Source: Candidatus Poseidoniaceae archaeon (GTDB lineage: Archaea > Thermoplasmatota > Poseidoniia > Poseidoniales > Poseidoniaceae). Taken from it: a stretch of DNA of 64,000 nt. The translations under genes and the position numbers were made by a program. The notes under the pieces are model-generated. The model saw only the letters and a program-made list of their open reading frames with translations, ran no database searches and was not told the origin of the DNA. The DNA lies in assembly GCA_943789275.1 (NCBI GenBank), contig CALSTM010000003.1, positions 596,053 to 660,052 of the forward strand. Reading direction: 5' to 3'. Shown here in pieces: positions 2,400 through 34,910 of this stretch; positions within the stretch are counted from its first letter, which is position 1; every line of letters begins with the position of its first letter.

Positions 2400-2870
2400 A
2401 TGAAATCACTCCTTCTTGCCGTGTTAATGGTCTCCATGTCCCTTTCTGTGGGCCTTGTGGAACTGAACAAAGCCCCTTGGCTTGTTGAAGACGGTGAAAG
2501 CGAACTTGAAGAGTTAAACAATCCCATGCACACAACCGCACCTTCGATTTCCTATTCCTCAAGCACACTCGCTCTTTCCAACAACACCGCTATGACGCCA
2601 GTGACAGCGACGAATTCAGGTGGTACGGTTGGAGTTCCGGTGGCAATAGAACTCAGTACCATCGATGAATGGCTGTCTTTAGCCCTTGATTCTGATGGAT
2701 ACAGGCATGTTTCCGCTGCCGACACCACCAGTAGTGATCTCATGTATGCGACCGACACCAGTGGGGCTTGGGTCAACATAACCGTTGATGCTCCAGGACA
2801 GGTCGGGGAATACAACTCAATCGCTGTTGATTCTGAAGACGTCGTGCATATTGCCTACTTCAGCCTATAA
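2400..2870 (+). CDS. N-terminal signal-peptide-bearing segment of giant surface protein 1. It is separated from the body by an apparent +1 frameshift at about 2865-2870.
   Basis: MKSLLLAVLMVSMSLSVGLVELN is an N-terminal signal-like hydrophobic segment. The segment ends with the repeat ...IAVDSEDVVHIAYFSL followed by a stop. The same repeat unit (..K..DLKYATC..) continues in frame +1 from about 2866. The upstream ORF-track start (2274) is TTG and lacks a signal peptide. Confidence 0.5.
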   Translation: MKSLLLAVLMVSMSLSVGLVELNKAPWLVEDGESELEELNNPMHTTAPSISYSSSTLALSNNTAMTPVTATNSGGTVGVPVAIELSTIDEWLSLALDSDGYRHVSAADTTSSDLMYATDTSGAWVNITVDAPGQVGEYNSIAVDSEDVVHIAYFSL

Positions 2871-5800
2871 GGATGATACGAACGCACTTACTCAAGACCT
2901 CAAGTACGCTACGTGCGCATCATCATGCGCATCAGCATCTTCATGGTCAAACATCACCCTTGACGCCACTGGTTTTGTAGGCGAGAGAACCTCCATCGCA
3001 GTTGATTCAAATGATGGAGTGCATATTTCCTACACCGATAATACCAACAATGCACTGAAGTATACCATGTGCTCCTCATCTTGTGGTACAGCATCTTCAT
3101 GGTCGAATGTTTCTGTTGACGATATAGGAACCGGTGATACTAAACCAACTGATATCGCGATTGATTCAAACGATGCAGTACACATTGCCTACCATTGGCA
3201 AGGAATCAGTAATCTCAACATACGATATGCCACGTGTACTACCTCGTGTGCATCGGCATCCTCATGGACAAACACATCAGGTATTAGCCTCAGCAACATA
3301 CACGATGTGGCACTCGCAATTGATTCAAACGACGCACTGCACATTGCTGGCTATGATTATGACAATAAGGATATCATTTACCTCGCATGTACCTCTTCAT
3401 GTACTTCTACCTCTTCATGGTCAAATATTAGCGCTGTTACCACTGGCGAAGTTGGTGCACGATTATCGATTGCAGTTGATTCTACGAATAACCCACACAT
3501 ATCCTATCAGGCTGGTGCGTGGGCCGTACATGTTGGTCTGCCCCTTGGATACGCCACTTGCACTTCATCGTGTCTAACTGCCTCAAGCTTTTGGACTCAC
3601 GGTACTGTTCATAGCGGCTCCGCCGTTTACACCTATGGTACATCAATTGCAGTCAATCATAACAACGATAGCGTACATATCGTCCATGGCAATTTGTTTT
3701 CCAAATTTTACTACCTCGGCTCAGACACTGCTCCATATACCGTAAGTCCCGACCTTCCAAGTGGTTTGAGTTTGGATTGGAGCAGCGGAAAAATTTCTGG
3801 GACACCGAGAGAACTCTCCACCTCCACGATCTACACCATTACCGCAAGAAATGCACATGGTTCGGATACCGCAACACTGACCATTTCGGTCAACGCACCA
3901 CCTTCGCTGTCCTACGATTTGGGTACAGGAAACAGCACTTCAGTCTATTCCAACAAACAGGTTGCTGCAGGATACCAACACACCTGCGCCATTCTTGACA
4001 ATGGTTCTGTGATGTGCTGGGGAGAGAATGGCCACGGACAGTTAGGCAATGGTGGAACAGGCGACGAACACATACCCGTTTGGGTTGATCTTGGCACGGA
4101 TAGGACCGCCGTTGCGATCACTGCTGGATACAGACACACCTGCGCCATTCTTGACAACGGTTCAGTTTCCTGTTGGGGACAGGGAATTTTTGGGCAATTA
4201 GGTAATGGAGGAACATCACAACAAACCTCACCAACGCTCACCAGCAGCCTTGGAACCGGCCGTACGGCCGTAGCGATCACTGCTGGATACAGTCACACCT
4301 GCGTCATTCTTGACAACGGTTCAGTTTCCTGTTGGGGAATCGGAAATAAAGGACACTTGGGTAACGGAGGTACATCACAACAAAACTCACCAACGCTCAC
4401 CAGCAGCCTTGGTACCGGCCGTACGGCCGTAGCGATTTCTGCTGGACAATATCACTCCTGCGCCATTCTTGACAGCGGTTCAGTTTCCTGTTGGGGGTAT
4501 GGAATTGAGGGACAATTGGGTAACGGAGGTACATCACAACAAAACTCACCAACACTCACCAGCAGCCTTGGAACCGGTCGTACGGCCGTAGCGATTTCTG
4601 CTGGAGGCATCCACACCTGTGCCATACTTGACAACGGTTCAGTCTCATGTTGGGGGGAGGGAAGTAAAGGACGATTGGGTAACGGAGGTACATCACAACA
4701 AAACTCACCAACGCTCACCAACAGCCTTGGAACCGGTCGTACGGCCGTAGCGATTTCTGGTGGAGCCAAACACACCTGCGCCATTCTTGACAGCGGTTCA
4801 GTCTCATGTTGGGGAGATGGAGCCATTGGCATACTGGGTGACGGGGGGACATCAGATCAACACTCACCAACGCTCACCAGCAGCCTTGGAACTGGCCGAA
4901 CGGCAGTTGCGCTTGAGAATGGACACGCCCACACCTGTGCCATTCTTGACGACGCTTCCATGAAGTGTTGGGGAAATGACAACAACAAGCAGTTAGGCAA
5001 TGGAGCCACAGGCAGCACCGGCGACCCACCCGTTTTGGTATCAGGCAGCCATACGTGGGACTCCACGATGATTTCAGGTTCATCAAGTACAGTTTACCTT
5101 GTACAGAATGCGCTTATGAGTTCACTTTCTCCAACGTTAGACGCTGGCTTCGGTGCACCCACTTCATGCAACCAAACAGGGCTACCTTCTGGCCTTTTAC
5201 TTAGCACCACATGCGTGCTCTCAGGAACACCGACAACGTTGGGCAGTACAACGCTGACAATTACCCCCTCGAATGCAGAAGGTAATGGTTCTGCAGCCAT
5301 TTTTATCGTCAATGTGAATGCTTCAGGTGGTTCAATCACCATCAACACAACCTCCACCGAAGGTGGCGTAGGCAGTGCCATCTCAGACATCACCATGTCG
5401 TATACACACACCGCCAGCATTCCAAATTGGGTCTCAGGTGTGACCAACAGCACAATTAATCCAGCCCCCTCAATTCCAGCCGGCGGGGGTTCAAAACTTT
5501 CAATCGATTCTGGTCTAAACGGAGACATCGCAGCTGTGTATTCAGTGGAGCGAACCGGCGCGACCTCAGCCAATCTCTCCTTGCTCTACAAGTGGAACGG
5601 GGCATGGACAGAGAGTACCATTGACAGCAGTGTCGATACGGAGGTTCCATCGGTTGCTATCGACCGACAGGGAGCACTTCACATCGGGTATGTCGATAAG
5701 GACAATGCCAAGTTGAAGTACGCCACCAATGCATCTGGGTCTTGGGTCGTTGAAACGTTGGGTGATGCAGCGACTCACCAATTTGCACAAACGGCAATTT

Positions 5801-8800
5801 CAGTGCATCCGGTCACAAATGCAATTCATATCATGGCCGTGAACGGATCGACCATCCCAACCGCAGGATTGAATCATCACACAAACGAAACAGGTACCTG
5901 GCTCTACTCAACCATTTCTGACCCATCAGAGGAAGAGGGATTCGGGGTTAATTTCGATATTGACTCAGATGGTAACCTGCATGTTGTTTTCCGAAGAGAA
6001 GCCAACAGTGTCACGACCCCTCACTATGACCACTTGATAATGGCCAGTCGAATAAACGGTGTTTGGCAAAACCAGACCATTGCAATCAATCTGATTAACG
6101 GTGCGTATGGACATCACTTTGACATGGCCATTGATTCACAAGATCAAATACACGTAACATATCAAGGTAACCTCAATCAAGGAAAATGGATTTGGCATGG
6201 CGTATTATCAAGTGTTAACCCAAGCAGTAGCTGGGTTTTAACTCAATTATCTACCTCAGGATTTTACCCAGCTTTGGCCGTCGATTCAAACGACAATGTG
6301 CACCTTTCTTATCACGGTGGTGCGGGCTGTCCAAGGATCAGTGGTACCAAACATACACCTCTGGAACGTGGAGTTCGACGAATCGAAACAAGCGCCACCG
6401 CCGGCAACATTCATGGGGGTTACTTCAATGAAATGACCACAGATTCCAATGATGATGTCTTTATATTTGCTTATGGGCAAGTGGTTTCCACTTGCAAAAG
6501 TTGTGACATTCGAATAACCAGAATTCAAGGTTTAGGACCAAGTCTTGCGACGAATCCGATTTTCGAGGTATCACCACCACTCCCAGACGGACTGAACATG
6601 AACTGGCACAACGGTACCATTTCTGGAACACCGACTGAAACCCACGCGAACACTACACACACCGTCACAGTGACTGCCTTTGGCGCAACCACAACTGAAA
6701 CATTCACACTTATGGTCATTGAAGCAGCCGATATTTCCTACGCAGGTTCACCGTTTACGTTCACCAAGAACACCGAAGTCGTTGGAGAAACACCAACCAA
6801 CGCTGGTGGAGCAGTCATCACATGGGCAATTCACCCGCCAGCATCTTCGCTACCAAACGGTCTCTTGTTTGGCCCATCCAACGGAACCATCTACGGTACA
6901 CCGACCACTGTGGTCTCTTCCGCCGTTACGTTCACCGTTTGGGCGAACAATTCGGCTGACAGCAATTCGACAACCATTTCGATCACCGTTCAAGACGAAG
7001 CTCCTGACATTTCGTATGCAGGTTCACCGTTTACGTTCACCAAGAACACGGAAGTTGTTGGAGAAACACCAACCAACGCTGGTGGTGCGGTAAGCACATG
7101 GGCAATTCACCCGCCAGCATCTTCGCTACCAAACGGTCTCTTGTTTGGCACATCCAACGGAACCATCTACGGAACACCGACCACTGTGGTCTCTTCAGCC
7201 GTTACGTTCACGGTTTGGGCGAACAATTCTGCCGATGATATTTCGACAACCATTTCGATTACTGTTCAAGATGAAGATGCTGACATTTCGTACGCAGGTT
7301 CACCGTTCACATTCACCAAGAACAGTCTTGTGAGCGGTGCAACGCCAACTAACGTTGGTGGCGCACCAGATGCATGGGCTATTGATCCAGAAATCTCTAC
7401 CACGATTCCAGGACTCTCGTTCAACACCGCAACGGGTGCTATCACCGGTACGCCAACAGGAGTACATTCGGCCACTATGTTCACCGTTTGGGCCAACAAT
7501 TCCGCAGGTGATATTTCGACAACCATTTCGATCACCGTTCAAGATGAAGATGCTGACATTTCGTACGCAGGTTCACCGTTCACGTTCACCAAGAACAGTC
7601 TTGTGAGCGGTGCAACGCCAACTAACGTTGGTGGCGCACCAGATGCATGGGCTATTGATCCAGAAATCTCTACCACGATTCCAGGACTCTCGTTCAACAC
7701 CGCAACGGGTGCTATCACCGGTACGCCAACAGGAGTACATTCGGCCACTATGTTCACCGTTTGGGCCAACAATTCCGCAGGTGATATTTCGACAACCATT
7801 TCGATCACCGTTCAAGATGAAGATGCTGACATTTCGTACGCAGGTTCACCGTTCACATTCACCAAGAACAGTCTTGTGAGCGGTGCAACGCCAACTAACG
7901 TTGGTGGCGCACCAGATGCATGGGCTATTGATCCAGAAATCTCTACCACGATTCCAGGACTCTCGTTCAACACCGCAACGGGTGCTATCACCGGTACGCC
8001 AACAGGAGTACATTCGGCCACTATGTTCACCGTTTGGGCCAACAATTCCGCAGGTGATATTTCGACAACCATTTCGATCACCGTTCAAGATGAAGATGCT
8101 GACATTTCGTACGCAGGTTCACCGTTCACATTCACCAAGAACAGTCTTGTGAGCGGTGCAACGCCAACTAACGTTGGTGGCGCACCAGATGCATGGGCTA
8201 TTGATCCAGAAATCTCTACCACGATTCCAGGACTCTCGTTCAACACTGCAACGGGTGCTATCACCGGTACGCCAACAGGAGTACATTCGGCCACTATGTT
8301 CACCGTTTGGGCCAACAATTCCGCAGGTGATATTTCGACAACCATTTCGATCACCGTTCAAGATGAAGATGCTGACATTTCGTACGCAGGTTCACCGTTC
8401 ACATTCACCAAGAACAGTCTTGTGAGCGGTGCAACGCCAACTAACGTTGGTGGCGCACCAGATGCATGGGCTATTGATCCAGAAATCTCTACCACGATTC
8501 CAGGACTCTCGTTCAACACCGCAACGGGTGCTATCACCGGTACGCCAACAGGAGTACATTCGGCCACTATGTTCACCGTTTGGGCCAACAATTCCGCAGG
8601 TGATATTTCGACAACCATTTCGATCACTGTGAACGACATTGCACCAGTTTTCACATATTCATCCCTCGAAGTGACATTAACCAATAATTCGGCGGTATCG
8701 CTCTTGCCAATCAGCACGGGCGGGGCGGTCACATCGTGGGAGTACGTAGGAACTGAACCACTCGGTTTGAACTTCGAAGGCGGAAATGGAACCATTTGGG

Positions 8801-11800
8801 GCACACCAACCGTTGTTCAATCGAAAACTCAATACTTGATTTGGGGGAACAATTCAGGTGGACAGCTTTTGGTTTACATGAACATCACCATTTCTGATGT
8901 GCCTGTTTCCTTGAGTTACACCTCTGACAATTACAACCTCACGCGTGCTGTCACAATGACAACGCCAATCAGTCCAGTTTACACTGGTATTGTTGATGCG
9001 TGGGGCATTGAACCTTCACCTACATTGGCGGGTCTCTCTTGGGATTCATCCACAGGTGTGATTTCAGGTACGCCAAACATCAACATGACCCGAACAGAAT
9101 ACACCGTTTGGGCAAACAATACCGGTGGTAACGTGTCTCATAAGTTCAACATCACCATCAACGAACCGATTGTGACCTTGGTCTACACTCCTGCGAGCGA
9201 AACCTTTGTTCGAGGTACGACAATCACCAACTGGCTCCCAACGGTGACCGGTGGAAACGTCGAAACTTGGGGCATTGAACCTTCAATTACGGGAACTGGT
9301 CTTTCGTTTGTCAACGGAGTGATTTCGGGTACACCGACCATCAACATGACCCAAGCCGATTACATCGTATGGGCCAACACGACCGGTGGCGAGACCAACT
9401 TTACCATCAGCATTACCATCAATGAACCGATTGTGACCTTGGTCTACACTCCTGCGAGCGAAACCTTTGTTCGAGGTACGACAATCACCAACTGGCTCCC
9501 AACGGTGACCGGTGGAAACGTCGAAACTTGGGGCATTGAACCTTCAATTACGGGAACTGGTCTTTCGTTTGTCAACGGAGTGATTTCGGGTACACCGACC
9601 ATCAACATGACCCAAGCCGATTACATCGTATGGGCCAACACAACCGGTGGCGAGACCAACTTTACCATCACCATCACCATCAATGAACCGATTGTGACCT
9701 TGGTCTACACTCCTGCGAGCGAAACCTTTGTTCGAGGTACGACAATCACCAACTGGCTCCCAACGGTGACCGGTGGAAACGTCGAAACTTGGGGCATTGA
9801 ACCTTCAATTACGGGAACTGGTCTTTCGTTTGTCAACGGAGTGATTTCGGGTACACCGACCATCAACATGACCCAAGCCGATTACATCGTATGGGCCAAC
9901 ACAACCGGTGGCGAGACCAACTTTACCATCACCATCACCATCAACGAACCTGGAGTCATCCTTGAGTACAATCCAGAAAATGTAATCGTCACAATTGGTG
10001 ACCCAATGACTGCGTTGACCCCAATTGTCAGCAACGGGAGCGTTGAGATATGGAGCATTTATCCCGAACTTGATAATGGATTGAACTTTGCAAACGGAAT
10101 CATCTCAGGAACGCCAACAAGCATTCAATCAAAACAAACCTACAAGATTTGGGCTAACAACACAGGCGGCAATACATATCACGATGTCAACATCACAATC
10201 CTTGACATCGTTCCTGAAATTTCCTACAGTCTCGTAAGCATTGACCTTACTAATGATACGACAAGCAGTGAGTTGCCTCTCTCCCCGAGTAACCTCGGCG
10301 GTCCAGTGGTGTCATGGTCGATTACGCCAGACCTCAGCCTTGGCTTGTCGTTTGACCCTGCAACCGGCGTCATCAGTGGAACACCCACTGAAGTCACAGC
10401 ACTTCGAGTCTACACCGTTACTGCAACAAATACAGGTGGAACGAGCACGACAGAGATTGAAATCACCGTTCTTGACCAAGTTCCGATGATTGCATACGTG
10501 CCTTCGGATGAAGTTCTGCTCTTGAACGAGAGTGTCCTGAACATGGTACCTGAATCCACGGGTGGAGCAATCACGGGCTGGTCAATCACACCTGAGCCAT
10601 CTGCTGGTTTGTTCTTTGACGCATCGACCGGTGTTTTCAGCGGTACGCCTACGGAGACAATGATTCGAACCCTGTACGAGATTACAGCAACAAATGATGT
10701 GGGAAGCATGACCGTTTCGGTTAACATCACCGTTGAAGATTTGAATTACAACCTCTCGCTTGGTCCGATTTATTTGCTCATTAATGAGGAAATGTTGAGT
10801 TTAGAACCGACATCAACCCTCTCTGATGCTGTCTATGAAGTCAGCCCAGATCTGCCTGATGGTCTCTTCCTTGGAGAAAGCAATGGAACCATTTGGGGCA
10901 CACCAACGGTTGGAATGCCTCTGACAAATTTCACCATCTATGCCAACAGCAGTTTGTTCAATGATGTGCTTGAAATCCAAATCGGAGTCCTAGAAGATTC
11001 AGATTCGGATGGAATGCCGAACCAACTGCCGCTTGGTTACAATCCACTCGGCGGTCTTACCGAAGACTTGGACGATGACGGTGACGGCTTCACTGATGCC
11101 GAGGAAAGCGAATGCGTTTCAGACGCATTGGATGCAGATTCAGCGCCAACCGACCTCGATGGCGATTCCATCTGCGACGCATTGGATGATGACGTCGACG
11201 GCGATGGCTTGTTGAATGATGTTGAAACAAACACCTCAACCTACGTGGATGAGAACGATACTGGAACCGACTCAATGAACGCTGACACCGACGGTGACGG
11301 CGTTTGCGATGGACCTCAAGTGCCAGCTAACGGCGGCTGCACCGCAGGACCAGATGTGTTCCCACTCGACCCTGCAGGCTCCGTTGACAGCGATGGTGAC
11401 GGCATGCCGGACACTTTGAACGGTGAATCCACCAGTTCACCACCTCTGGTCGAAGACCTCGATGACGACAACGACGCTTGGTCTGACGAGATGGAAGCAG
11501 CATGTGGAACGGACAGCGTCGATTCGAACAGTGTTCCTAGCGATGAAGACGCCGACGAAATCTGTGACAGCCTTGACACGAACCTGGACCTGCCGTTCAA
11601 CCTCACATACCCAACCGATACATTGACTGTAACATTAGGTGAAGAGATTTCAATCCTGCTTCCAAACCTCACCGGTTTGGGTGAAGTGTCTTCTTGGGAG
11701 ATTGAAGGTGAATTGCCCGAGGGATTGACCTTTGGCTGGAGTCCAGCAAGGGATGCTGCTCTTGACGGAAGTATACGTGGTACACCAACTGCAGTAATGT

Positions 11801-13092
11801 CTGCGACCGTCTTTACCATCTGGGCGAACAACTCTGCATACAGTCAATCGTTTGAACTTACGATTACTGTTCTCGAAGACCTCGTTCTTCCAAATGATGA
11901 TGGTGATGCTGGTGTTGATGAGGATGATGAGGACACCCCGCTGCTCCTCACTTGGGGTTACATCTGTTGCCCGTTGCTTCTTCTGCTTCTGCTGTCCGTC
12001 TTTATGTTGTTCTTCATCGGTGAAAAACAAGTCGTTATCGATGCTGAACCTTCAAACACTTTTGTAAAACCAGTTAGCAAAAGAGGCACAGGTACTCAAG
12101 AAGATCCTTTCGTATTGAAATCAATTGGAGGTCTCAAACCCGGTGGAAAAGCGAACAGCCATGAACGAATTACATTCGTCGGCTTGACAGTAGAGAGTAT
12201 TGAAATAATCGATTTGGAGCAAAAGAACAATGGAAATAAATTTTCCATGTTCATGCTCAAGCCAGCCTCCAGTGAAACGGGTGTTCGAATGCTTGGTATC
12301 GACGAGAATGTAGACACCACCATTGGCATGAGATTCGATGACAGTAAAGAAGAATCTTCCGTTAAGGGCGATGAATATTCAGCGTTGTTGAAAATTGGCA
12401 AATCCAGTGTTTACTTTTCTTGGACGGTGACGGTTAAACCGAGCAAGGTCAACAAAGTGAAGCCTAGAGAACCAATAGTGACGATTAAATCGACACAATC
12501 CATGTCCAAATCGGGTTCAATGAGTTCTTCTGAACCAAAGTCGTCCGTGGAGGAGAAGGCTGCAAAGGATGCTGAAGCTAAGGCTGCAAAGGATGCCAAA
12601 GCGCAAGCAGATGCGGATACTAAGGCGGCAAAGGAAGCCAAAGCGCAAGCAGATGCGGATGCTAAGGCGGCAAAGGAAGCCAAAGCGCAAGCAGATGCGG
12701 ATGCTAAGGCGGCGAAGGAACTCAAAGCACAAGCGGATTCAGAAGCCAAAGCAGTTAAAGAAGCCAGAGCCAAAGTCGACGAAGATGCTGCAGCTGTTGC
12801 CAAAAAGGCAGAAGAATTGGAACGTATCGCAAAGCGGGCTAAAAGTATTGATTTCGCTACGCTCGGTGTGGCTAACATCGGTGAAAAAGATGACCTGCAA
12901 GCCATCAAGGGCGTTGGTCCGTTCATCGGAGAAAAGTTGAATGCACTCGGCATCTTTACGTTTGAGCAAGTCGGAAACATGACGCCTGAAATTGAAGAAC
13001 AGGTCAACAAAGCGATTGAATTTTTCCCTGGCCGCGTTAAGCGAGACCAGTGGGCGAAGCAAGCAAGGCAACTTCATCATGATAAAAAGTGA
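2785..13092 (+). CDS. Body of giant secreted, membrane-anchored adhesin-like protein 1 (3435-aa ORF, ~3,600 aa with the N-terminal segment). It contains beta-propeller-like repeats, RCC1-like repeats, tandem Ig-like (He_PIG or cadherin-like) domains, TSP3-like Ca-binding repeats, a single TM helix, and a cytoplasmic tail with AK-rich repeats and an HhH-like domain.
   Basis: A single 10.3-kb ORF. The RCC1 signature HTCAILDNGSVSCWGxGxxGQLGNGG occurs seven times. LPxGLxFxxxxGxIxGTPT Ig-like units number more than 20. The acidic repeats include DxDxDGxxD (DTDGDGVCD). The hydrophobic helix is LLLTWGYICCPLLLLLLLSVFMLFFIG. The C-terminus is IKGVGPFIGEKLNALGIFTFEQV...FFPGRVKRDQW. Confidence 0.85.
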   Translation: MMLQDRSGNTTQSLLILKTSCILPTSAYKDDTNALTQDLKYATCASSCASASSWSNITLDATGFVGERTSIAVDSNDGVHISYTDNTNNALKYTMCSSSCGTASSWSNVSVDDIGTGDTKPTDIAIDSNDAVHIAYHWQGISNLNIRYATCTTSCASASSWTNTSGISLSNIHDVALAIDSNDALHIAGYDYDNKDIIYLACTSSCTSTSSWSNISAVTTGEVGARLSIAVDSTNNPHISYQAGAWAVHVGLPLGYATCTSSCLTASSFWTHGTVHSGSAVYTYGTSIAVNHNNDSVHIVHGNLFSKFYYLGSDTAPYTVSPDLPSGLSLDWSSGKISGTPRELSTSTIYTITARNAHGSDTATLTISVNAPPSLSYDLGTGNSTSVYSNKQVAAGYQHTCAILDNGSVMCWGENGHGQLGNGGTGDEHIPVWVDLGTDRTAVAITAGYRHTCAILDNGSVSCWGQGIFGQLGNGGTSQQTSPTLTSSLGTGRTAVAITAGYSHTCVILDNGSVSCWGIGNKGHLGNGGTSQQNSPTLTSSLGTGRTAVAISAGQYHSCAILDSGSVSCWGYGIEGQLGNGGTSQQNSPTLTSSLGTGRTAVAISAGGIHTCAILDNGSVSCWGEGSKGRLGNGGTSQQNSPTLTNSLGTGRTAVAISGGAKHTCAILDSGSVSCWGDGAIGILGDGGTSDQHSPTLTSSLGTGRTAVALENGHAHTCAILDDASMKCWGNDNNKQLGNGATGSTGDPPVLVSGSHTWDSTMISGSSSTVYLVQNALMSSLSPTLDAGFGAPTSCNQTGLPSGLLLSTTCVLSGTPTTLGSTTLTITPSNAEGNGSAAIFIVNVNASGGSITINTTSTEGGVGSAISDITMSYTHTASIPNWVSGVTNSTINPAPSIPAGGGSKLSIDSGLNGDIAAVYSVERTGATSANLSLLYKWNGAWTESTIDSSVDTEVPSVAIDRQGALHIGYVDKDNAKLKYATNASGSWVVETLGDAATHQFAQTAISVHPVTNAIHIMAVNGSTIPTAGLNHHTNETGTWLYSTISDPSEEEGFGVNFDIDSDGNLHVVFRREANSVTTPHYDHLIMASRINGVWQNQTIAINLINGAYGHHFDMAIDSQDQIHVTYQGNLNQGKWIWHGVLSSVNPSSSWVLTQLSTSGFYPALAVDSNDNVHLSYHGGAGCPRISGTKHTPLERGVRRIETSATAGNIHGGYFNEMTTDSNDDVFIFAYGQVVSTCKSCDIRITRIQGLGPSLATNPIFEVSPPLPDGLNMNWHNGTISGTPTETHANTTHTVTVTAFGATTTETFTLMVIEAADISYAGSPFTFTKNTEVVGETPTNAGGAVITWAIHPPASSLPNGLLFGPSNGTIYGTPTTVVSSAVTFTVWANNSADSNSTTISITVQDEAPDISYAGSPFTFTKNTEVVGETPTNAGGAVSTWAIHPPASSLPNGLLFGTSNGTIYGTPTTVVSSAVTFTVWANNSADDISTTISITVQDEDADISYAGSPFTFTKNSLVSGATPTNVGGAPDAWAIDPEISTTIPGLSFNTATGAITGTPTGVHSATMFTVWANNSAGDISTTISITVQDEDADISYAGSPFTFTKNSLVSGATPTNVGGAPDAWAIDPEISTTIPGLSFNTATGAITGTPTGVHSATMFTVWANNSAGDISTTISITVQDEDADISYAGSPFTFTKNSLVSGATPTNVGGAPDAWAIDPEISTTIPGLSFNTATGAITGTPTGVHSATMFTVWANNSAGDISTTISITVQDEDADISYAGSPFTFTKNSLVSGATPTNVGGAPDAWAIDPEISTTIPGLSFNTATGAITGTPTGVHSATMFTVWANNSAGDISTTISITVQDEDADISYAGSPFTFTKNSLVSGATPTNVGGAPDAWAIDPEISTTIPGLSFNTATGAITGTPTGVHSATMFTVWANNSAGDISTTISITVNDIAPVFTYSSLEVTLTNNSAVSLLPISTGGAVTSWEYVGTEPLGLNFEGGNGTIWGTPTVVQSKTQYLIWGNNSGGQLLVYMNITISDVPVSLSYTSDNYNLTRAVTMTTPISPVYTGIVDAWGIEPSPTLAGLSWDSSTGVISGTPNINMTRTEYTVWANNTGGNVSHKFNITINEPIVTLVYTPASETFVRGTTITNWLPTVTGGNVETWGIEPSITGTGLSFVNGVISGTPTINMTQADYIVWANTTGGETNFTISITINEPIVTLVYTPASETFVRGTTITNWLPTVTGGNVETWGIEPSITGTGLSFVNGVISGTPTINMTQADYIVWANTTGGETNFTITITINEPIVTLVYTPASETFVRGTTITNWLPTVTGGNVETWGIEPSITGTGLSFVNGVISGTPTINMTQADYIVWANTTGGETNFTITITINEPGVILEYNPENVIVTIGDPMTALTPIVSNGSVEIWSIYPELDNGLNFANGIISGTPTSIQSKQTYKIWANNTGGNTYHDVNITILDIVPEISYSLVSIDLTNDTTSSELPLSPSNLGGPVVSWSITPDLSLGLSFDPATGVISGTPTEVTALRVYTVTATNTGGTSTTEIEITVLDQVPMIAYVPSDEVLLLNESVLNMVPESTGGAITGWSITPEPSAGLFFDASTGVFSGTPTETMIRTLYEITATNDVGSMTVSVNITVEDLNYNLSLGPIYLLINEEMLSLEPTSTLSDAVYEVSPDLPDGLFLGESNGTIWGTPTVGMPLTNFTIYANSSLFNDVLEIQIGVLEDSDSDGMPNQLPLGYNPLGGLTEDLDDDGDGFTDAEESECVSDALDADSAPTDLDGDSICDALDDDVDGDGLLNDVETNTSTYVDENDTGTDSMNADTDGDGVCDGPQVPANGGCTAGPDVFPLDPAGSVDSDGDGMPDTLNGESTSSPPLVEDLDDDNDAWSDEMEAACGTDSVDSNSVPSDEDADEICDSLDTNLDLPFNLTYPTDTLTVTLGEEISILLPNLTGLGEVSSWEIEGELPEGLTFGWSPARDAALDGSIRGTPTAVMSATVFTIWANNSAYSQSFELTITVLEDLVLPNDDGDAGVDEDDEDTPLLLTWGYICCPLLLLLLLSVFMLFFIGEKQVVIDAEPSNTFVKPVSKRGTGTQEDPFVLKSIGGLKPGGKANSHERITFVGLTVESIEIIDLEQKNNGNKFSMFMLKPASSETGVRMLGIDENVDTTIGMRFDDSKEESSVKGDEYSALLKIGKSSVYFSWTVTVKPSKVNKVKPREPIVTIKSTQSMSKSGSMSSSEPKSSVEEKAAKDAEAKAAKDAKAQADADTKAAKEAKAQADADAKAAKEAKAQADADAKAAKELKAQADSEAKAVKEARAKVDEDAAAVAKKAEELERIAKRAKSIDFATLGVANIGEKDDLQAIKGVGPFIGEKLNALGIFTFEQVGNMTPEIEEQVNKAIEFFPGRVKRDQWAKQARQLHHDKK
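3960..5010 (+). repeat. Seven RCC1-like (beta-propeller blade) repeats of about 150 bp each, encoded within giant gene 1.
   Basis: Recurring xHTCAILDxGSVxCWGxxxxGQLGNGGTSQQNSPTLTSSLGTGRTAVAIxAG. Several copies share long identical nucleotide runs (for example acggttcagtttcctgttgggg). Confidence 0.75.
6724..8635 (+). repeat. Seven tandem 273-bp (91-aa) Ig-like domain repeats. The last five (7271-8635) are nearly identical at nucleotide level.
   Basis: The protein unit DADISYAGSPFTFTKNSLVSGATPTNVGGAPDAWAIDPEISTTIPGLSFNTATGAITGTPTGVHSATMFTVWANNSAGDISTTISITVQDE occurs five times. Spurious antisense and alternate-frame ORFs recur with an exact 273-nt period (7266, 7539, 7812, 8085, 8358) and identical translations. 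Confidence 0.9.
9163..9945 (+). repeat. Three near-identical tandem repeats of about 261 bp (87 aa), each encoding an Ig-like domain.
   Basis: EPIVTLVYTPASETFVRGTTITNWLPTVTGGNVETWGIEPSITGTGLSFVNGVISGTPTINMTQADYIVWANTTGGETNFTI(S/T)ITIN occurs three times. The nucleotide copies are visibly identical. Confidence 0.85.
12590..12720 (+). repeat. About three tandem copies of a 60-bp repeat encoding the Ala/Lys-rich unit AKEAKAQADADAKAAK in the cytoplasmic tail of giant protein 1.
   Basis: The string gcaaaggaagccaaagcgcaagcagatgcggatgctaaggcggca repeats three times with a 60-nt period. Confidence 0.8.
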
Positions 13093-13177: not shown

Positions 13178-13501
13178 ATGAGAGGGGACGCCGTAGGTAT
13201 GCCTCTCTTTCAATCGGGCCACTCTGCTGTGTTGAACAGAAAGTCCATCAAGTCAATTTGGCTTGCAGTTTTGATGGTTTCAATGTCGCTTTCTGTTGGC
13301 ATCGTTGAATTGAACCGGACACCGTTGGTAGATGCCATTGGTGTAGCAAGTGTTGGAGCAGGCTGTGCGTTTATCACTCGGGCCAGCGGCGAGGCAATCT
13401 ATGTCGATCCGGTCAACGGTTCGGATGCTTGGGACGGCACCTGGTCGTGTCCAAAAGCAACACTTTCCGATGCTCTGAACGACTCCATTTCAGAACGATG
13501 A
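13178..13501 (+). CDS. N-terminal signal-peptide segment of giant locus 2. It ends at a stop and continues in frame +1.
   Basis: The signal peptide ...KSIWLAVLMVSMSLSVGIVELN matches that of gene 1. YVDPVNGSDAWDGTWSCPKATLSDALNDS is the usual N-terminal lead-in of right-handed beta-helix proteins. The continuation (ND)EIVLYSGRYHENVTVDG lies in the next frame from about 13479. Confidence 0.5.
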   Translation: MRGDAVGMPLFQSGHSAVLNRKSIKSIWLAVLMVSMSLSVGIVELNRTPLVDAIGVASVGAGCAFITRASGEAIYVDPVNGSDAWDGTWSCPKATLSDALNDSISER

Positions 13502-16500
13502 AATCGTACTGTACAGCGGGCGGTATCACGAAAACGTCACTGTTGATGGCAAGGACAACCTTCTGATTCGTGCAGCCGATGGAGCCCGTGTTGTCTTTGA
13601 CGGTACTCGAAGCATTACTGAAGATTTAGGTGGTGTTTGGGGTGCAGCCGACAGCGATGGAATCCAAGAAGTCACTTTGCCTGTTGATGGCTGGCAACTG
13701 TTCCTTGCCTACGAAGAACAAGTTCCTGCTCGATGGCCAAATGCCCAATTCTCTGATGAAACGGTCTTCAATCGTTCGTACTGGGCTGAAGGCACATTGA
13801 CCGGTTCAAACAATGCCTACACGCAAGGCTGGTTGACAGATGCTGGTCCTGAAACAGGTGTTCACACAGGCCTCAATGAAACAATTAACGCCACAGGCCT
13901 CGACCCTGAAGGGGCTATTGCGGTGATGAACCTCGGTTCGTTCCGCTCCAACAGCCGTGTCATCACCGATTGGAATTCGGCCAACGGGACGTTTGCATAC
14001 GATGGCACTGGCGTAGGTTGGAAAACCAAGCATCACGCTTACTTCCTTGAGGGCAAGCGAGAACTCATCGATGTCGATGGTGAATGGTGGTTCAACAATG
14101 CAATCAACCGCCTGCATTACAAAACGCCAAGCGGGCAGAATGCAAACAATTTGGATTTGCGTGTCAAGGTACAACCGTTTGCGATGAGCGTTGAAAACTC
14201 CGACGGCGTGACCATCCAAGGCCTCGATTTCTTTGGAACGACGGTCAACTTCAACGAATGCGATGGATGCAGTTTCACCAATTCGACCCTCGAATATCCA
14301 AGCACCTCAAAGCGTGGATTGGGTATTGCCGGCGAATCAGAAGATGACCGTTGGATGACACGTTTCTATCGTTCAACCAACTCGTTTGTCGACAACATTT
14401 CCATCACCAACACCGACGGTGGCGCTCTTGAATTCCAAGGGTCTGCGGGTCAGTCGCACAACAACACGGTGAACAATTCCTACTTCCACGCCATCGACTG
14501 GTCAGCTGCCGACCAGAAAGGACTGATGGTCACAATTTACGAGGGAGGCCGAGACATGTACTTCACCAACAACACCGTTCACTTGACCGGGGCTTCATCC
14601 GTACTCTCCATTGGTGATGCGCCCAAGGTGTTCTACAACGAAGTCTGGGATGTTGGGCATTTGCAAACTGATGGCGCTGTTGTTCAGATCATGCAAGGTG
14701 AGGCCCCAGGTGCTGAAGTTGCTCACAACTGGATTCATGACATCATCAAGTACGGTGCCCGGTTTGATGCACCCATTGGAGAAGCGGGAGAAGGCCGGAA
14801 TGGAACCATGCATCACAATGTCATTTGGAATGTAACGGGCGGTTTGATGGTTAAGGGGGACTATCACGACGTCCACAACAACACGGTGTTCAATTCCTCA
14901 GATGGCAAAAATGACATCATTGCCCTCACCGATGGCGAGATCAACAACAAAAATTCGACGTTTCACCGCAATGCGGTGGATAAGATGGCCGACCATCGCT
15001 CAGGCTCATGGTCGCTTTATCCACTTCCCGCTGGGACGTATTGGAACAACTGGAACGGCTACGTCAACACCACGGATACGGTTTGGAATCAACTGGTTGA
15101 CCCTGCCAATTACGATTTCAGACCGAAGACCAACTCCCATCTTGACAACATGAGTGCGGGTGCATACGATGCTGGTGTGAGCAATCCGTGGACGGCCGGT
15201 ATTTCTTGGACATACACGACGCCCGATGCACCGGTCGAAGGGTGTATGCTCGATTATGCTGACAACTACGATGCAGACGCCACGCTATCAGACGGCTCGT
15301 GCTCCTTCGCATCGTATACGCCACCGGCCACGCTCGACCTCCGTCTCCATCTTGACCCAACCAACAGCAGTTCCTACAGCGGCAGCGGCACCAACGTCGC
15401 TGACCTTTCTGGGTTCAACAACTACGGAACCGTCGCCGCCGCTGGACCGACATGGGACGGCGATTTCACACGCTTCTCCTACGATGGGGCGTGCACTGGC
15501 TCGACCCCGAACCTGGTTTGCGATGAGATCGAAGTTTCTGACTCAACGAGCTTGCGCCCGGGCGGAAACGACTGGTCGGTATCAGTTTGGTTCAACGCCT
15601 CAACGCACCAACACAGCGTGATACTCGGCGCCTTCGACGACGGAGGGGCAGCAGTGGATGTTGGATGGGCCATCCGAATGAGAGCATCAGGTGGCATCTA
15701 TGCAAATGTGGGAACCACTTCCAACAATTCGGCCGCATGGACGTCAGAAGCATCCATCGATACGGACCGCTGGTATCACGTGGTCTTGGTTGCAGACCCG
15801 GGAAATACCCTCAGACTCTATGTTGATGGGCAAAACGTCGGAAGCGGTTCCTTGTCTGGAAGTGGAGCCCTGCGCAATGTAAGCAACAGCCTCTTCATCG
15901 CCTCCTACAACGGCGGTGAATATTCTCAGACCTTTGATGGACAAGTTGGTTCCGTCATGGCCTTTGCCGATGCACTCAACGCCACCACCATCAATCAAAT
16001 CTACAATGCAAGCAAGGGTGTGTACAGCAACACGACCACCCTGTCCTTCCCTCAATCTTCACCGACCTTGCTCCTCGGTCAAACATACAGTTTCCCCATG
16101 ACTGTCGCCAACGGTGAGATCACGACGTCCTATTCGCTCACGGGAACCTTGCCAAGCGGCATGAATTTCGAATCGAGCAACGGTACGATTTGGGGAACGC
16201 CAACGGCGGCTATGTCAACCACGAGCTACACCGTGACGGCCAACAACTCAGCCGGCACCTACTCGACCTCGTTCTCGTTGACATCGCAACATGCGGCACC
16301 GTACGATTTGGCCTACGCGCCAGAGAACATGACCCTTGAGAAGGGTACGGCCATGACGACCAACACGCCGAGTGTGAGCGGGGGCGCCATCACATCTTGG
16401 GAAATCAACCCCTCCGTGCCAACTGGACTTTCCTTTAGCACCTCAACCGGTGCCATCAGTGGTACGCCTTACGTGTTGCAAACAACAGCAACCACGTACA

Positions 16501-19500
16501 CGATATGGGCCAACAATTCAGGCGGAAATGCTTCAGCACAGGTCAACATCACCATCAACGATGAAGTGCCGATTATTTCCTATTCGTATGATGACATTAC
16601 CGGTACCAAGAGCGTGGCCATCAGCCCCCATTCTGGTCCAACTACGAGCGGTGGGACCATCACCTCATGGGAGATTTCACCATCACCAGGTTCTGCGTTC
16701 CACTTTAATTCCGCAAATGGCTACATCAGCGGAACTCCGGGGATTCTTCTGGCTAGAACCCAATACACCATTTGGGCCAACAATTCAGGTGGTTCGTCCG
16801 TTGCCTATGTCAACGTGACCATCAACGATGCAGCGCCGAACGCGTTGGGTTATTCTCCAGAAAATATGACACTCGAGAAGGATACAGCGATGACGCCGAA
16901 CCTTCCTTCGGTCAGTGGTGGAACCATCACGTCATGGGAAATCAGTCCTTCTCTGCCGAGCGGTCTGACATGGGGGGCCTCGGATGGGAAAATCAGTGGA
17001 ACACCCGCCGTTCTGCAAACGACGACGGTTACGTACACGATTTGGGCCAACAACTCAGGTGGTTCAGATTCCGCTCAAGTGAACATCACCATCAACGACC
17101 AACTCGCATCTGCAACCTATCCTTCAACCGTTGAAGTATCCAACGACCGAGCGATGACGACGGTCTCGCCGACCGTCACCGGTGGAGCGGTCATCTCGTG
17201 GGTCATCGTGCCTTCACTCTCCTCAGGCCTCAATTTCGGTAGTAGCAACGGAAGCATCTGGGGCACGCCAACAGGATTGTTGGAGAACGCCACCTACACC
17301 GTCTATGCGAACAACAGCGGCGGTTCAACCAGCATTACCTTCACGCTCGGGCTCAACTGGACGCTGACGCCAAGTGCCGAGGGTGCCTTCATCACCCGCA
17401 ACAGTTCCATTGCCAGCGACATCACGTGGGAATGGGATTACGATCCGCTTGAAGCTCAGAACCTTTCATTGGTGACTGGAGAATGGAACACCTGTGCCCT
17501 TGATAGCAATCAAAACGTGTTTTGTTGGGGACGAAACGGCAACGGTCAAATCGGCAACGGACAAACTGGAACGTCTGGTTGCGGTACATCAGGCCACAAG
17601 TGCAAGGACATTCCAACAGCAACGAACGATTTGGGCTCGGACGTGATCTCCCTTGCCTTTGGCCACCAGCATGCATGTGGCTTGCTTGACACTGGTGCCG
17701 TGAAGTGTTGGGGCCGAAACAATGCAGGGCAACTTGGAACCAGCGGTGGAGACAAGGATACGCCTCAAACCATCAATCTCGGGTCAGGGCGAACCGCTAC
17801 GAGCATCTACGCCGGTGGCCACTACACCTGCGCCATCCTCGATGACGCCTCCGTCAAGTGCTGGGGGGAGAATGGGAACGGTCAACTCGGTATTGGTTCA
17901 AACTCGAACGCCAACACACCGACCACCATTAACACCCTCGGGTCAGGTCGCACGGCTATTTCTTTAGCAACCGCCATGAGTGCAGTCTGTGCCCTCCTCG
18001 ATGACGGTTCAGTCAAGTGTTGGGGAGCCTCCGCAAATGGCCAGTTAGGCAATGGGGGTACCAGTTCAAATCTGAAGAGTCCACCTGCATCTGCAATTAA
18101 CCTCGGAACCGGCCGTACTGCAAAAGCCATCACAGGTGGCGAATCCCATTTCTGCGCCATCCTCGATGACGATTCCATCAAGTGTTGGGGCAATGGATTC
18201 AATGGGAAACTAGGAACCGGGACAACTTCCCACAGATCAACACCAACCTCAACCAGCGGAAGTTTCGCTACAGGTCGCTATGCGGTCGCCATTGACGCTG
18301 GCTACGATCACACCTGTGCCATTCTCGATAACGGCCAACTCACATGCTGGGGTTCTGATTCTGATGGCCAACTGGGTAACGGCGCTACCACGGGTACGAA
18401 ATCATCGATTCAATCCACAACCGTCACTCTTGGGTCGGGACGAACGGCCATTTCGCTTTCTGCAGGTGGAGAGCACACCTGTGCGCAACTGGACAATGGA
18501 CAACTCAAGTGCTGGGGGAATCGAGCAGACGGTCAAGTTGGCGACAACGGGAATTTCAACAATCCGTCCGATCGCACGAGCCCTTCCTCCGTATCCAACA
18601 ACAACCACGGCGGATATACCTATCTCAATACGGGCGTCATGCCTTCTTCCGCTGTTACTGGCGCTACCTGCGAGATCTCGCCTTCCCTCCCAACCGGCCT
18701 CAGTTTGACCGCCGGCACCTGCACCATCACCGGCACACCGACCGCTACAGCCAGCAACGCCACCTACACCATTTGGGCCAACGTTTCCGGCACATCGTAC
18801 AGCGGTCAAATCTGGCTTGAAGTCGGTTTGAATGCACCGGACATTTCCTATTCGTCTTCGACCTATACCTACACCAAGGACATAGAAATTTTCACGCTCA
18901 ACCCAACCAACGTCGGTGGCGAAGTGACAACTTGGGCCATCAACGCAACGTTGCCATCAGGCCTTACATTCGAGACCAGTAACGGTACAATTTGGGGCAC
19001 ACCGGACACGATTACGGCATCAACCACCTACACGGTATGGGCGAACAATTCCGCTGATTCAGATTCCTTCACCATCACGTTCACCGTAAACGATGCTACT
19101 CCGAATTTCTATTACGGCAGCGCAAGCGGTGGAGGCGCACACACACTTGTCCTCTATCTGGATCAGACCATGAATCCACTCACGCCGACCCAGGCATCCG
19201 GGGGTGGAGCGATCACTTCGTGCAGCAGTTCACCATCACTGCCTTCTGGGCTGTCGTTGAGTTCAACATGTGTCCTTTCAGGAACACCTGATGCAACCGC
19301 TACCGGGGCCTTCTACACCATCACAGGAACCAACACAGGCGGTAGCGATACAGCATCGTTGTACATCGAAATCCGCTCCTATGGTGGAACATTGAGCGTG
19401 ACACCAAGCAACACTGAAGGCAGCGTGAACAGTTCCATCTCAGACATCACGATGTCCTATGCGCATCAAATCAGCAACTACGGTTGGACATCTGGTGTAA

Positions 19501-22500
19501 GCAACACGACCACGACCCTCAGCAATAATTTCCTAACCGCAGGTGGAACGCACCTGCTCGGCATTGATTCGGGCGATCAAGGCGAGATGGTCGTTGTCTA
19601 TGCACATAACGATACGAGTTCCGCCAGTGGCACCTACAGCTTGGCCATGATGTACCGCTGGGGCGGAACATGGACTGAAACCATTCTCGACACCGGCACA
19701 GATACGGGGTATCATCCATCGGTTGCCATCGATCGTCAGGGCGCAATCCACATCGCCTACATCGATGATCACAACGACGAACTTCGTTATGCTACCAATG
19801 CTTCAGGGTCGTGGGTCTTCACAACCTTGGGAAGTTCAACCTACGACAACGATGACGGACGTGGAACGGCGATTGTCGTTCACCCAATTACAGATGCCGT
19901 TCACATTGTGACAACGATCAACGATAACACCTATCGTGATTTACAATATCACACCAATGAAAGTGGTTCTTGGGTGAATGAGACCATCACCAATACGCTC
20001 TCGGATGAAGGTCATGACCCTGCTATGGCGATGGATGGCGACGGAAATCTCCACGTCGCTTACTATTGCGACGATGGTTGTAGCGATTTGCGTATGTCCA
20101 GCCGAATCAATGGCGTTTGGCAAAACGAAACGGTTGCGAGCACCCTTAACATTGGAAACGATCCTGACATTGCCATCGATTCACAGGGTACGATTCACAT
20201 CGTGTCACAGTACCTCAATACCAAACGTATCTATCTCCATTCCGGTACGCCAGGAAGTTGGACTGAACAAACAGGGCTCTCAGGAGGAAACGCTCACTGG
20301 CCTGTGGTATCGGTTGATTCAAATGATGCTGTCCACATCTCCTATCATTTTGGAAACACACAAAAAGATGTGATGTACATGACCAACGCTTCTGGCTCTT
20401 GGTCAACAGCGTCCATGATTGAAGGATACGGTGGCTGGGGCAGTGAAATGGTCATCGATGCCAACGATGACATCTTCATTCCGAACGTCGCTCCAGGAAT
20501 AACAGAGATCCAATTGACCACAGTCAAGGGTTCAGGACAAGGTTTGACAGCCCGTCCAACCTATGACATTGCACCGATGCTTCCTGACGGTTTGATCATG
20601 AACTGGCGTAATGGAACCATTTCGGGCACACCAACAGAAGCCCTTGCCAACACAACCTTCACCGTCACAGTCACCGCCCTCGGAACCACCACCACATCGG
20701 CCTTCACGCTCTTCATCACCGGCGCTCCCGGTGCTATCGCTTACAGCGACATCTCAGGGACAAAGGGTACGGCCATCACCCCCGTCACACCGTCCATCAC
20801 CACCAACGGCACGACCGGTAGCGTGACCTCGTGGACCATCAGTCCAACTTTGCCAAGCGGGCTTTCATTCGGTACGAGCAATGGAACGATTTGGGGTACG
20901 CCAACAGTGGTTGTTTCCGGAGCGGTGTTCACGATTTGGGCGAACAACTCGGTCGGGTCCAAGTCAACAACGGTCAACATCACTGTCAATGATGAAGCAC
21001 CTGACATCTCTTACAATCCAGACTGGTTTGTTTTGACCAAGGGCACTGTCATGTCACCAACAGCGACACCAACCAATACAGGTGGTGCGATTCCATCGGG
21101 CATTGTCGACTCTGGAAGCAGTCTTGGTAGTCACACCTCAATCGCCCTTGATTCGAATGGATACAAGCATATTTCCTACTATCATGCCACCAATAAGGAC
21201 CTCATGTATGCAACCGATAAGAGCGGTTCTTGGGTCACCACTTCGATTGATACATCTGGAATTGTTGGCCATTACACCTCCATCGCCATTGATTCCAATG
21301 ATGATGTTCACATTTCCTACTATGATTCCACCAATGGCGACCTCAAGTATGCAACCGATAAGAGCGGTTCATGGGTCACTACTTCGATTGACACCTCTGG
21401 AATTGTTGGCCATTACACTTCCATCGCCATTGATTCCAATGACGACGTGCACATTTCCTACTATGACACCACCAATGGCGACCTCAAGTATGCAACCAAT
21501 AAGAGCGGTTCTTGGGTCACCACTTCGATCGATACATCTGGGACTTCGATTTTTAGCTCTTACACCTCCATTGGCATTGATTCCAATGATGATGTTCACA
21601 TTTCCTACTATGATTACACCAATGGCGACCTCAAGTATGCGACCGATAAGAGCGGTTCTTGGGTCACCACTTCGATTGATACATCTGGAATTGTTGGCCA
21701 TGACACCTCCATCGCCATTGATTCCAATGATGATGTTCACATTTCCTACTATGATTACACCAATGGCGACCTCAAGTATGCAACCGATAAGAGCGGTTCT
21801 TGGGTCACCACTTCGATCGATACATCTGGAAATGTTGGCGCTTACACCTCCATCGCCATTGATTCCAATGATGATGTGCACATTTCCCACCAAGATTTCG
21901 GGAATGGCGACCTCAAGTATGCAACCGATAAGAGCGGTTCTTGGGTCACCACTTCGATCGATACCTCTGGAAATGTTGGCGCTTACACCTCCATCGCCAT
22001 TGATTCCAACGATGATGTGCACATTTCTTACTATCACATCACCAATACCGAACTCAAGTATATCGGTCTTGATTCTTCTTCGAATGTGCTTGGCTATTCG
22101 GTCAGTCCAGCCCTACCTGCAGGATTGAGTTTGGATTTGGGTACGGGTGAAATTTCAGGCACACCAACTGCGCTTTCAACCAACACGACATACACGATAA
22201 CGGTACGCAACTCTGGCGGTACTAACACAACGACGATCACAATCGAGGTTCTCGACCAGTTGCCGACCATTGCTTACTCGCCAGAGAACTTGACGCTGAC
22301 CAACAACACGGCCAGCACCGATTTGCCGCTGACTGCAACGGTCACGGGTTCGGGGACGATCACCTCTTGGGCGATCAACGCAACCTTGCCTGCTGGCCTC
22401 AACTTCGGAACCAGCAACGGTACGATTTGGGGCATTCCGACCGTGCTCCAAACAACGGCAACAACCTACACGGTTTGGGCCAACAACAGCGGTGGTTCCT

Positions 22501-34906: not shown

Positions 34907-34910
34907 TCAA

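Follow-up and report, generated by a model that had tools for sequence, protein, structure and literature searches.

A predicted Ig-like juxtamembrane domain family on the tails of giant surface proteins of Poseidoniales

What does a giant archaeal surface protein carry on the inner side of its membrane anchor? The question is raised by a 64,000-nt stretch of a Candidatus Poseidoniaceae genome (contig CALSTM010000003.1 of GCA_943789275.1; hereafter the window, whose positions are used for all coordinates). Here two giant genes on the forward strand, gene 1 and locus 2, each encode a long ectodomain, a single transmembrane (TM) helix and a post-TM tail. Poseidoniales rank with the most abundant archaea of the plankton, and no member has been cultured. 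Particle attachment is the role ascribed to their giant adhesin-like proteins (PMC4511931), and the literature searched held nothing on cytoplasmic domains of the giant proteins of marine group II (MG-II). A first-pass annotation of the window, made from the sequence alone, had pointed to collinear motifs in the two tails and had proposed a conserved intracellular domain serving a dedicated partner. We read the shared segment as an unannotated, Ig-like, juxtamembrane cytoplasmic module of a Poseidoniales anchor cassette that acts as a scaffold, and give this reading as a whole a probability of about 0.55. The identity, fold and location of the domain, taken by themselves, are held with high confidence, and the scaffold or anchor mechanism is put forward tentatively.

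Gene 1 has a main open reading frame (ORF) of 3,435 aa (2785-13092, +), and locus 2 (13677-33121, +) is split into five ORFs. The single TM helices, placed by hydropathy and flanking charge, are LLLTWGYICCPLLLLLLLSVFMLFFIG at 11941-12021 (+) in gene 1, with an acidic stretch on the outer side and Glu-Lys (EK) directly inside, and VLGYILCPLFLLVLVAVAMLLVP at 32573-32641 (+) in locus 2, followed by KKK. The gap from TM helix to domain is short, with the domain beginning at 12040 after a helix that ends at 12021 in gene 1, and at 32663 after 32641 in locus 2. The predicted Ig-like beta-sandwich domain occupies 12040-12441 (+) in gene 1, where it starts DAEPSNT..GTGTQEDPF and ends SVYFSWTVTVKP, and 32663-33079 (+) in locus 2, where it starts DAQPQNT..GAGTREDPF and ends SVYFQWTVKMKP. 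GTGTQEDPF was located at 12085-12111 and GAGTREDPF at 32708-32734; the closing motifs lie at 12406-12441 and 33044-33079. The soluble post-TM tails, 356 aa in gene 1 and 159 aa in locus 2 by translation, were aligned by BLASTP with 47/147 identities (32%), 51% positives and E=1e-19. The alignment was collinear from 3 residues past each TM helix to the '...SVYF(S/Q)WTV..KP' motif, so that the motif order noticed in the first-pass annotation was borne out. The giants are not otherwise different. Gene 1 and locus 2 are paralogues that align collinearly (BLASTP) for 731 aa or more, with 52% identity, and the extracellular part of the common C-terminal cassette at 10291-11940 (+) in gene 1 is collinear with 30923-32572 in locus 2. 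This part contains, in order, He_PIG repeats, Asp/Cys-rich TSP3-like calcium-binding repeats and a last He_PIG domain, the labels being based on a He_PIG match in gene 1 and TSP3_bac matches in homologues. Identity upstream of the TM helix is about 57%, compared with 32% in the tail domain. The tail domain is the least conserved segment of the common cassette, and no island of similarity.

How widely does the domain occur? An exhaustive HMMER search, run with a profile built from three archaeal sequences only and counted in representative clusters at 50% identity, defined a family of 161 representative clusters at a library-wide E<=1e-3, 71 of them at E<=1e-10. A word-indexed homologue search returned just 4 and 6 matches. 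A profile search had been suggested as the way to find the domain on other proteins, and it did uncover a large family, phage proteins included. The named cluster members were from Poseidoniaceae and Thalassarchaeaceae and were annotated as 'putative Ig domain-containing' or 'hypothetical'. The domain was also traced to twelve genome loci (L001-L012), all from Poseidoniales, Poseidoniaceae or 'Euryarchaeota/Methanobacteriota' metagenome-assembled genomes (MAGs) and including the original MG-II genome CM001443.1; the flanking genes of the window are 90-99% identical to those of domain-bearing MAGs. A strong TM helix was found within 140 aa upstream in 48 of the 70 near-full-length representative matches, usually 3-30 residues before the domain, and He_PIG and TSP3_bac repeats lie upstream of the TM helix in family members. 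The alignable post-TM domain attributed to both giants is real, measures about 135-145 aa, and is TM-coupled across an archaeal order.

Both window copies align end to end with an alignment of 47 family members (alignment A3). The collinear family motifs EP.NT, P.F..G.GT..DPF, ITI, D.N...N..RF, F.FDD and Y.G..K.G..SVYF.W.V are present in both copies. Five columns of the 47-sequence alignment are invariant (G24, G26, P31, D109 and G128), and the near-invariant columns hold Pro, Gly and hydrophobic-core residues. Because the invariant columns are Gly/Pro/Asp fold determinants, the domain, which has no catalytic-type constellation of residues, is probably non-enzymatic. Pfam, NCBIfam and PHROGs scans of both window copies and the 47 alignment members gave no meaningful match to the domain, and no PDB sequence was matched by the family profile. 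The sequence family is absent from the libraries and literature searched; its fold class is ordinary.

AlphaFold2, given the 47-sequence alignment, predicted an all-beta sandwich (pLDDT 90.3, pTM 0.84), a model that supersedes an earlier one from a 3-sequence alignment (pLDDT 57). The objection that the two tails might resemble each other only in low-complexity basic residues was checked, and the alignable core is instead a predicted folded domain that recurs throughout the 161 clusters. Foldseek searches of the PDB returned generic sandwiches only, with TM-scores <=0.55. The predicted topology resembles that of ASH/PapD-like/MSP domains (Hydin, CFAP65, FAP81, CEP192, the OCRL1 ASH domain and VAP), but the sequence identity of these domains to the tail domain is 7-15%, and the Pfam ASH, MSP and PapD models matched none of the 47 members at E<=1. 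The ASH/PapD-like fold scores also fall in a range that many unrelated Ig-like sandwiches reach, among them pilins, the GH123 N-domain and integrin hybrid domains. Judged from the model, the resemblance is one of fold class, not of family membership. The He_PIG repeats of the ectodomain are likewise Ig-like and belong to the same giant proteins; they differ from the tail domain in composition and location. An origin of the tail domain as a displaced repeat of this kind was considered and rejected, hhalign against the protein's own He_PIG repeats giving a probability of 0.2%. The He_PIG profile (PF05345) did not match the tail domain in the window copies or in the 47 members, and no relationship of the domain to these repeats is detectable.

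On which side of the membrane does the domain lie? The first-pass annotation had placed it inside, and all the indirect evidence agrees, so that the tail domain is very probably cytoplasmic, a location that is inferred from signal peptides, the positive-inside rule, compositional shifts at the TM helix and the company kept by the helix-hairpin-helix (HhH) module found farther downstream. Both giants have signal-peptide-like, mutually homologous N-termini. The segment in gene 1, MKSLLLAVLMVSMSLSVGLVELNKAP at 2400-2477 (+), lies in ORF 2274-2870, out of frame with 2785-13092, and the homologous segment in locus 2, IKSIWLAVLMVSMSLSVGIVELNRTP at 13247-13324 (+), is in ORF 13178-13501, whose frame differs from that of the 13677-23309 ORF; the gene 1 N-terminus is 64% identical to the syntenic N-terminus in the MG-II genome (L003). 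When the 15 residues on each side of the TM helix were counted (n=47), there were 33 K+R and 204 D+E before it and 98 K+R after it, and the post-TM residues typically start R-[DE]-[KR]. Composition shifts abruptly at the TM helix: K+R content rises from 1.5% for the ectodomain to 9.9% for the domain and 18.3% for the tail; N-x-S/T sequons per 100 aa number 2.1, 1.0 and 0.22, and Cys content is 2.17%, 0.12% and 0.08%, in the same order. The HhH module is elsewhere found on cytoplasmic NuoE, S2, L21 and PhaH, and on the cytoplasmic C-terminal domain of the RC-LH1 protein-O/Urf1.

A C-terminal sorting signal, of the PGF-CTERM/archaeosortase type or like the C-terminal domain of the type IX secretion system (T9SS), was also considered for the tail. 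It was rejected given the long tail and the failure of any NCBIfam sorting-signal model to match at E<=1. The post-TM length is 160-360 residues in the window giants and reaches at least 700 in the family, unlike the archaeosortase type, in which a signature motif, a TM helix and a short basic cluster stand at the extreme C-terminus. The T9SS type is a cleavable C-terminal beta-sandwich that no TM helix precedes, and the T9SS is a bacterial (Bacteroidota) system. Neither a rhomboid protease nor an archaeosortase was seen among the window ORFs scanned. At the outer end of the TM helix itself a Trp/Cys motif (W.WCFPCLL, GYICCPLL, WWCCWPILL) is conserved family-wide, with a poly-Leu run after it, as for example at 11941-12021; this motif could be a site of lipidation, disulfide formation or recognition.

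Beyond the domain the two giants part company. Gene 1 continues with an Ala/Lys/Asp/Glu-rich (AK) repeat segment at 12550-12843 (+), a TolA-domain-II-like spacer (NCBIfam tolA_full, E=9.6e-10 over tail residues 178-284) that is presumably helical, and ends in an HhH module at 12844-13074 (+; ..LQAIKGVGPFIGEKLNALGI..FFPGRVKRDQW..) with the canonical GhG hairpin (IKGVGP) and an FFPGR..RD.W motif. Locus 2 has neither, and in their place has a Lys-rich C-terminal end of 13 residues, KKNPRKKSGKKSK, at 33080-33118 (+). Within the window, then, the AK repeats and HhH end are on gene 1 rather than locus 2, as first described, together with a third HhH-ended tail at 1-591 (+). This last belongs to a protein running off the left edge of the window, whose C-terminal 196 aa (frame 1 open from base 1) contain two HhH modules with Pfam Cdd1 and HHH_5 matches and are 85% identical to the tail of an orthologue (L005). 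The orthologue has a TM helix, the same beta-sandwich, EF-hands and two HhH modules. The segment at 1-591 is therefore the tail of a third cassette-type protein, and at least three cassette-bearing giant genes lie here in tandem. Family-wide, the view of the long gene 1 tail as a special case fails, since one to three HhH modules end 33 of the 37 family tails that extend >=120 aa past the domain, and it is locus 2 that is exceptional.

Among the twelve loci, type A, or gene 1-like, tails (L001-L003) have the domain, an AK-rich helix and HhH; a related type (L004-L006) has EF-hands and two HhH modules; and type B, or locus 2-like, tails (L007-L012) have the domain and a short Lys/Ser-rich end. 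The domains of the type B orthologues of locus 2 are 45-64% identical, and K/S-rich ends equivalent to that of locus 2 were found in L007, L008, L010 and L012. A charged spacer with HhH is thus a frequent and not a defining feature, present in gene 1 and missing from locus 2 and its orthologues. The tails of L005 (~4400-4700) and L006, and of P0013-type relatives, have canonical EF-hand loops, DRDGDGELSIED and DKDGDGKLTKED, between the beta-sandwich and the AK-rich spacer. These loops match Pfam EF-hand_1 at 28 bits in L005/L006-type tails, which suggests that this type of cytoplasmic tail is calcium-responsive. Two other members, P0042 (~220-340) and P0050, have a Lys-rich, He_PIG-looking segment (..GLDIDSKTGVISGNPEKIGKYTYEV..) between the TM helix and the beta-sandwich; if the He_PIG look holds, these proteins would have a second Ig-like domain on the presumed cytoplasmic side. 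Finally, the small proteins P0084 and P0065 lack a giant ectodomain; they begin with a TM hairpin and continue through the domain into a coiled coil, after which P0084 ends in an HhH module. P0151 is a 131-aa fragment of the same TM-hairpin and domain type. As these proteins show, the cytoplasmic cassette can stand alone.

The HhH module at the end of gene 1 has relatives in alphaproteobacteria. It matched NF009040 (the NuoE C-terminus) at E=9.1e-22, and S2 and L21 extensions also matched; among PDB sequences it matched 8yy9_O (RC-LH1 protein-O) at E=1.4e-12 and 9wqv_a (Urf1) at E=6e-12. Both gene 1 and the 1-591 protein have this NuoE/S2/L21/PhaH/protein-O/Urf1 module as their last 77-90 aa. 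As in gene 1, the module of protein-O/Urf1 is linked to a membrane anchor by a long linker. In contrast to the alphaproteobacterial cases, its carrier here is archaeal and has one to three copies of it, and it is distinct from the shared beta-sandwich. The HhH module of RC-LH1 protein-O/Urf1 is unresolved in cryo-EM maps (PMC12079452, PMC13066640), and its function has been called 'obscure' in structural papers (PMC12079452). Its occurrence on archaeal surface-protein tails is a cross-domain distribution of which no description was found in the literature searched.

The domain also has homologues in phages, reached with the archaeal-only profile at library-wide E values of 2e-8 to 2e-5. The weaker HMMER matches (E 2e-8 to 1e-4) have no TM helix; they are large Thr/Ser/Gly-rich proteins in which the domain falls roughly within residues 40-300. 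One TM-less group shares 41% identity with gp119 of Synechococcus phage S-CBWM1 ('BNR repeat domain protein', ATW62803.1 / A0A3G1L3P5), whose gene sits between baseplate-wedge and tail-fibre genes. Against gp119 residues 138-257, the archaeal profile gave E=1.6e-5 in hhalign, with 28% identity over 115 columns, and gp119 was the top Foldseek match among viral structures (BFVD), with E=3.5e-8 and a query-normalised TM-score of 0.67. The gp119 module has its motifs in the same order as the archaeal domain: P.F..G.GT...P[FY], NG.RF, F.D.P and Y.G..K.G..SVYF.W.V. Further copies were found on IMG/VR phage contigs, once in tandem (L016), and beside Collar and DUF4815 genes (L017). When deposited phages were searched by tblastn, neither the window domain nor the P0128 N-terminus gave a match; the P0116-type N-terminus was the sole query to match S-CBWM1. 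The phage copies of the gp119 type have no TM helix and no downstream HhH, occur in virion proteins among baseplate, collar and tail-fibre genes, and may be tandem. They are rich in Thr, Ser, Ala and Gly, with 14% charged residues compared with 27% in the archaeal copies. The window copies, unlike the phage type, are in cellular Poseidoniales genes with housekeeping flanks and have a TM helix before the domain. Judged by these similarities, the domain is a portable structural module common to marine phage fibre-like proteins and archaeal cell-surface giants, and not the cytoplasm-specific adaptor implied by the first-pass annotation.

The ratio of non-synonymous to synonymous substitution rates (dN/dS) of the domain was 0.08-0.31 within orthogroups (0.17-0.21 for type A and 0.14-0.31 for the locus 2 type), and the domain is therefore translated and constrained by purifying selection. 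For the adjacent pre-TM ectodomain the ratio was 0.07-0.21, with a dN 1.4-2.9 times lower than that of the domain. Flanking metabolic genes in the same genome pairs had ratios of 0.01-0.09 and dN values below that of the domain by at least 4-fold (TPMT) or more than 10-fold (the other two enzyme genes). In absolute terms, for 13677-33121 versus 34271-43083 across L007-L012, the tail domain had a dN of 0.25 and a dS of 1.3, and the flanking enzymes had a dN of 0.003-0.07 and a dS of 0.3-1.0. The whole giant gene, including the tail, is a fast-evolving or hypervariable island in a conserved backbone, a pattern more in keeping with a scaffold than with precise docking.

The flanking genes encode metabolic enzymes and one fast-evolving DUF3592 membrane protein. 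The latter, a multi-TM protein of 379 aa (33131-34270, -; a weak match), lies directly downstream of type B giants in all six type B loci and is their only consistent neighbour; like the giant gene it evolves fast, with 50-74% identity across these loci compared with 96-99% for the neighbouring ECH gene. Genomic context in related genomes, which might have pointed to an intracellular partner, gave no conserved cytoplasmic partner gene in the window or the related loci. The interpretation given in the first-pass annotation is thus only partly supported, and nothing points to the dedicated partner that it postulated, the domain being a generic Ig-like sandwich with Gly, Pro and Asp as its invariant residues, with metabolic and DUF3592 genes as its neighbours and with a dN far above that of the flanking genes.

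What, then, might the domain do? The cassette would run from TSP3-like calcium-binding repeats through the last He_PIG domain and the single TM helix to the beta-sandwich (~135 aa), a charged helical spacer and one to three HhH modules, with a short Lys-rich end replacing spacer and HhH in the locus 2 subfamily. As a non-enzymatic domain, the sandwich could form a rigid scaffold against the inner membrane face, as the base of a cytoplasmic tether. It might serve as a folded 'stopper' that helps to hold an extracellular filament of 3,000-6,000 aa in the bilayer, and it would hold a predicted polyanion- or DNA-binding end, whether HhH modules or a Lys-rich tail, at a set distance on the spacer. 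Some points weigh against this proposal. The stopper idea is drawn from mechanics. The dN of the domain, set beside those of the ectodomain, TPMT and the two other enzymes, is fast for a precise docking scaffold. Lastly, the nearest non-archaeal homologues are extracellular virion proteins, and the fold itself is therefore silent on a cytoplasmic role. A bolder version, in which giant, particle-binding adhesins are wired through the Ig-like domain and spacer to HhH modules that bind DNA or another shared cytoplasmic target, would be an outside-to-inside coupling new to archaea, and we regard it as improbable. The spacer would span about 15 nm if it were a single helix, and the nucleoid or large complexes might be tethered under the adhesion site; alternatively, intramembrane cleavage might release a DNA-binding fragment in a Notch-like manner. 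Were such coupling true, the HhH on NuoE, S2, L21 and protein-O would be a general tethering tag across domains of life.

Other explanations share part of this evidence. The beta-sandwich might recruit a cytoskeletal, sorting or signalling factor, as ASH/MSP domains do with Rab GTPases or FFAT motifs. Its best solved structural neighbours are indeed cytoplasmic ASH/PapD-like interaction domains (OCRL-Rab8 3qbt, CEP192, Hydin and VAP/Scs2), its position beside the TM helix is strictly conserved, and the EF-hands in the tails of one subfamily hint at signal responsiveness; given the fast divergence of the domain and a neighbourhood of metabolic and DUF3592 genes, docking of a dedicated partner is nevertheless unlikely. 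A little less likely still is oligomerisation, in which the domains of tandem paralogous giants would pair or trimerise under the membrane, clustering the filaments or setting their register as in trimeric phage fibres. Several tandem paralogues per genome carry the domain, its phage relatives are in fibre proteins and occur as tandem copies, and the charged helical spacer after it could form coiled coils, but the 32% identity of the paralogues argues against a conserved hetero-interface. That the domain is extracellular, or the hydrophobic segment not a stop-transfer anchor, and that the domain serves in adhesion as its phage relatives do, again as an Ig-like module, would accord with the virion-exposed homologues and with the sequon-like N-T-[TS] common at the domain start. 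This possibility is very improbable given the combination of a signal peptide, a single TM helix and a positive-inside bias, the abrupt shift at the TM helix in K/R (1.5% to 10-18%), Cys (2.2% to 0.1%) and sequon density, and downstream HhH modules that elsewhere occur only on cytoplasmic proteins; further, in the TM-hairpin variant P0084 the domain and the N-terminus share one side of the membrane. Least probable of all is a functionless relic of the duplication behind the two giants, an idea that would accord with the tail domain being the least conserved part of the 731-aa collinear block. It is already refuted by the dN/dS values within each orthogroup and by the distribution of the domain, which has a confident predicted fold and is kept in two families of the order as well as in proteins without a giant ectodomain.

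Eukaryotic type I adhesion receptors (integrins and cadherins) have structured cytoplasmic tails, and the bacterial giant RTX adhesins (LapA/MpIBP) have a retention 'plug' domain. These systems are parallels by analogy only, in that a long extracellular adhesive filament passes through a membrane once and would be retained or coupled by a folded part beyond it, and they have no sequence or fold relationship to the tail domain. A structured, very probably cytoplasmic tail of Ig-like domain, spacer and HhH gives the giant adhesins an intracellular side, on which a role in anchoring, clustering or nucleoid coupling can now be examined. For annotation, the 161 representative clusters define a new domain family. 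Two links also emerge, namely that marine phage tail-fibre modules contain the domain too and that the HhH tag of NuoE, Urf1 and protein-O occurs in archaea too. The domain itself is a generic scaffold fold, and the surprise is moderate.

Several minor features of the window deserve mention. Frame breaks occur in both giant genes, one just past each signal peptide (2274-2870 versus 2785-13092, and 13178-13501 versus 13500 onwards), with further breaks in locus 2 at 23309/23432, 25891/25943, 27331/27459 and 30431-30521. The 30431-30521 break is an indel error or strain-specific mutation and not a gene boundary, since a sequence from another assembly (P0005, 99.4-99.7% identical) reads through it. 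The ectodomains contain runs of near-identical He_PIG units of about 91 aa, at ~6500-8000 (five consecutive units in gene 1) and at 27459-29000; these runs are a likely cause of the assembly and frame problems and a likely source of length variation. A small ORF just 5' of gene 1 (861-1550, +) is 72% conserved at the same position in the MG-II genome (L003), and its C-terminus (..YYSTPRRCNQSDIAEVLGVKQGTVAEHL..), judged from its letters, makes it a candidate HTH_10-type regulator; an HTH_10 regulator is present among the window genes. Lastly, two T2SSF-family genes and a T2SSE-family ATPase gene are clustered at 52711-56880 (-), in what looks like a locus for archaeal type IV pilus or archaellum assembly.

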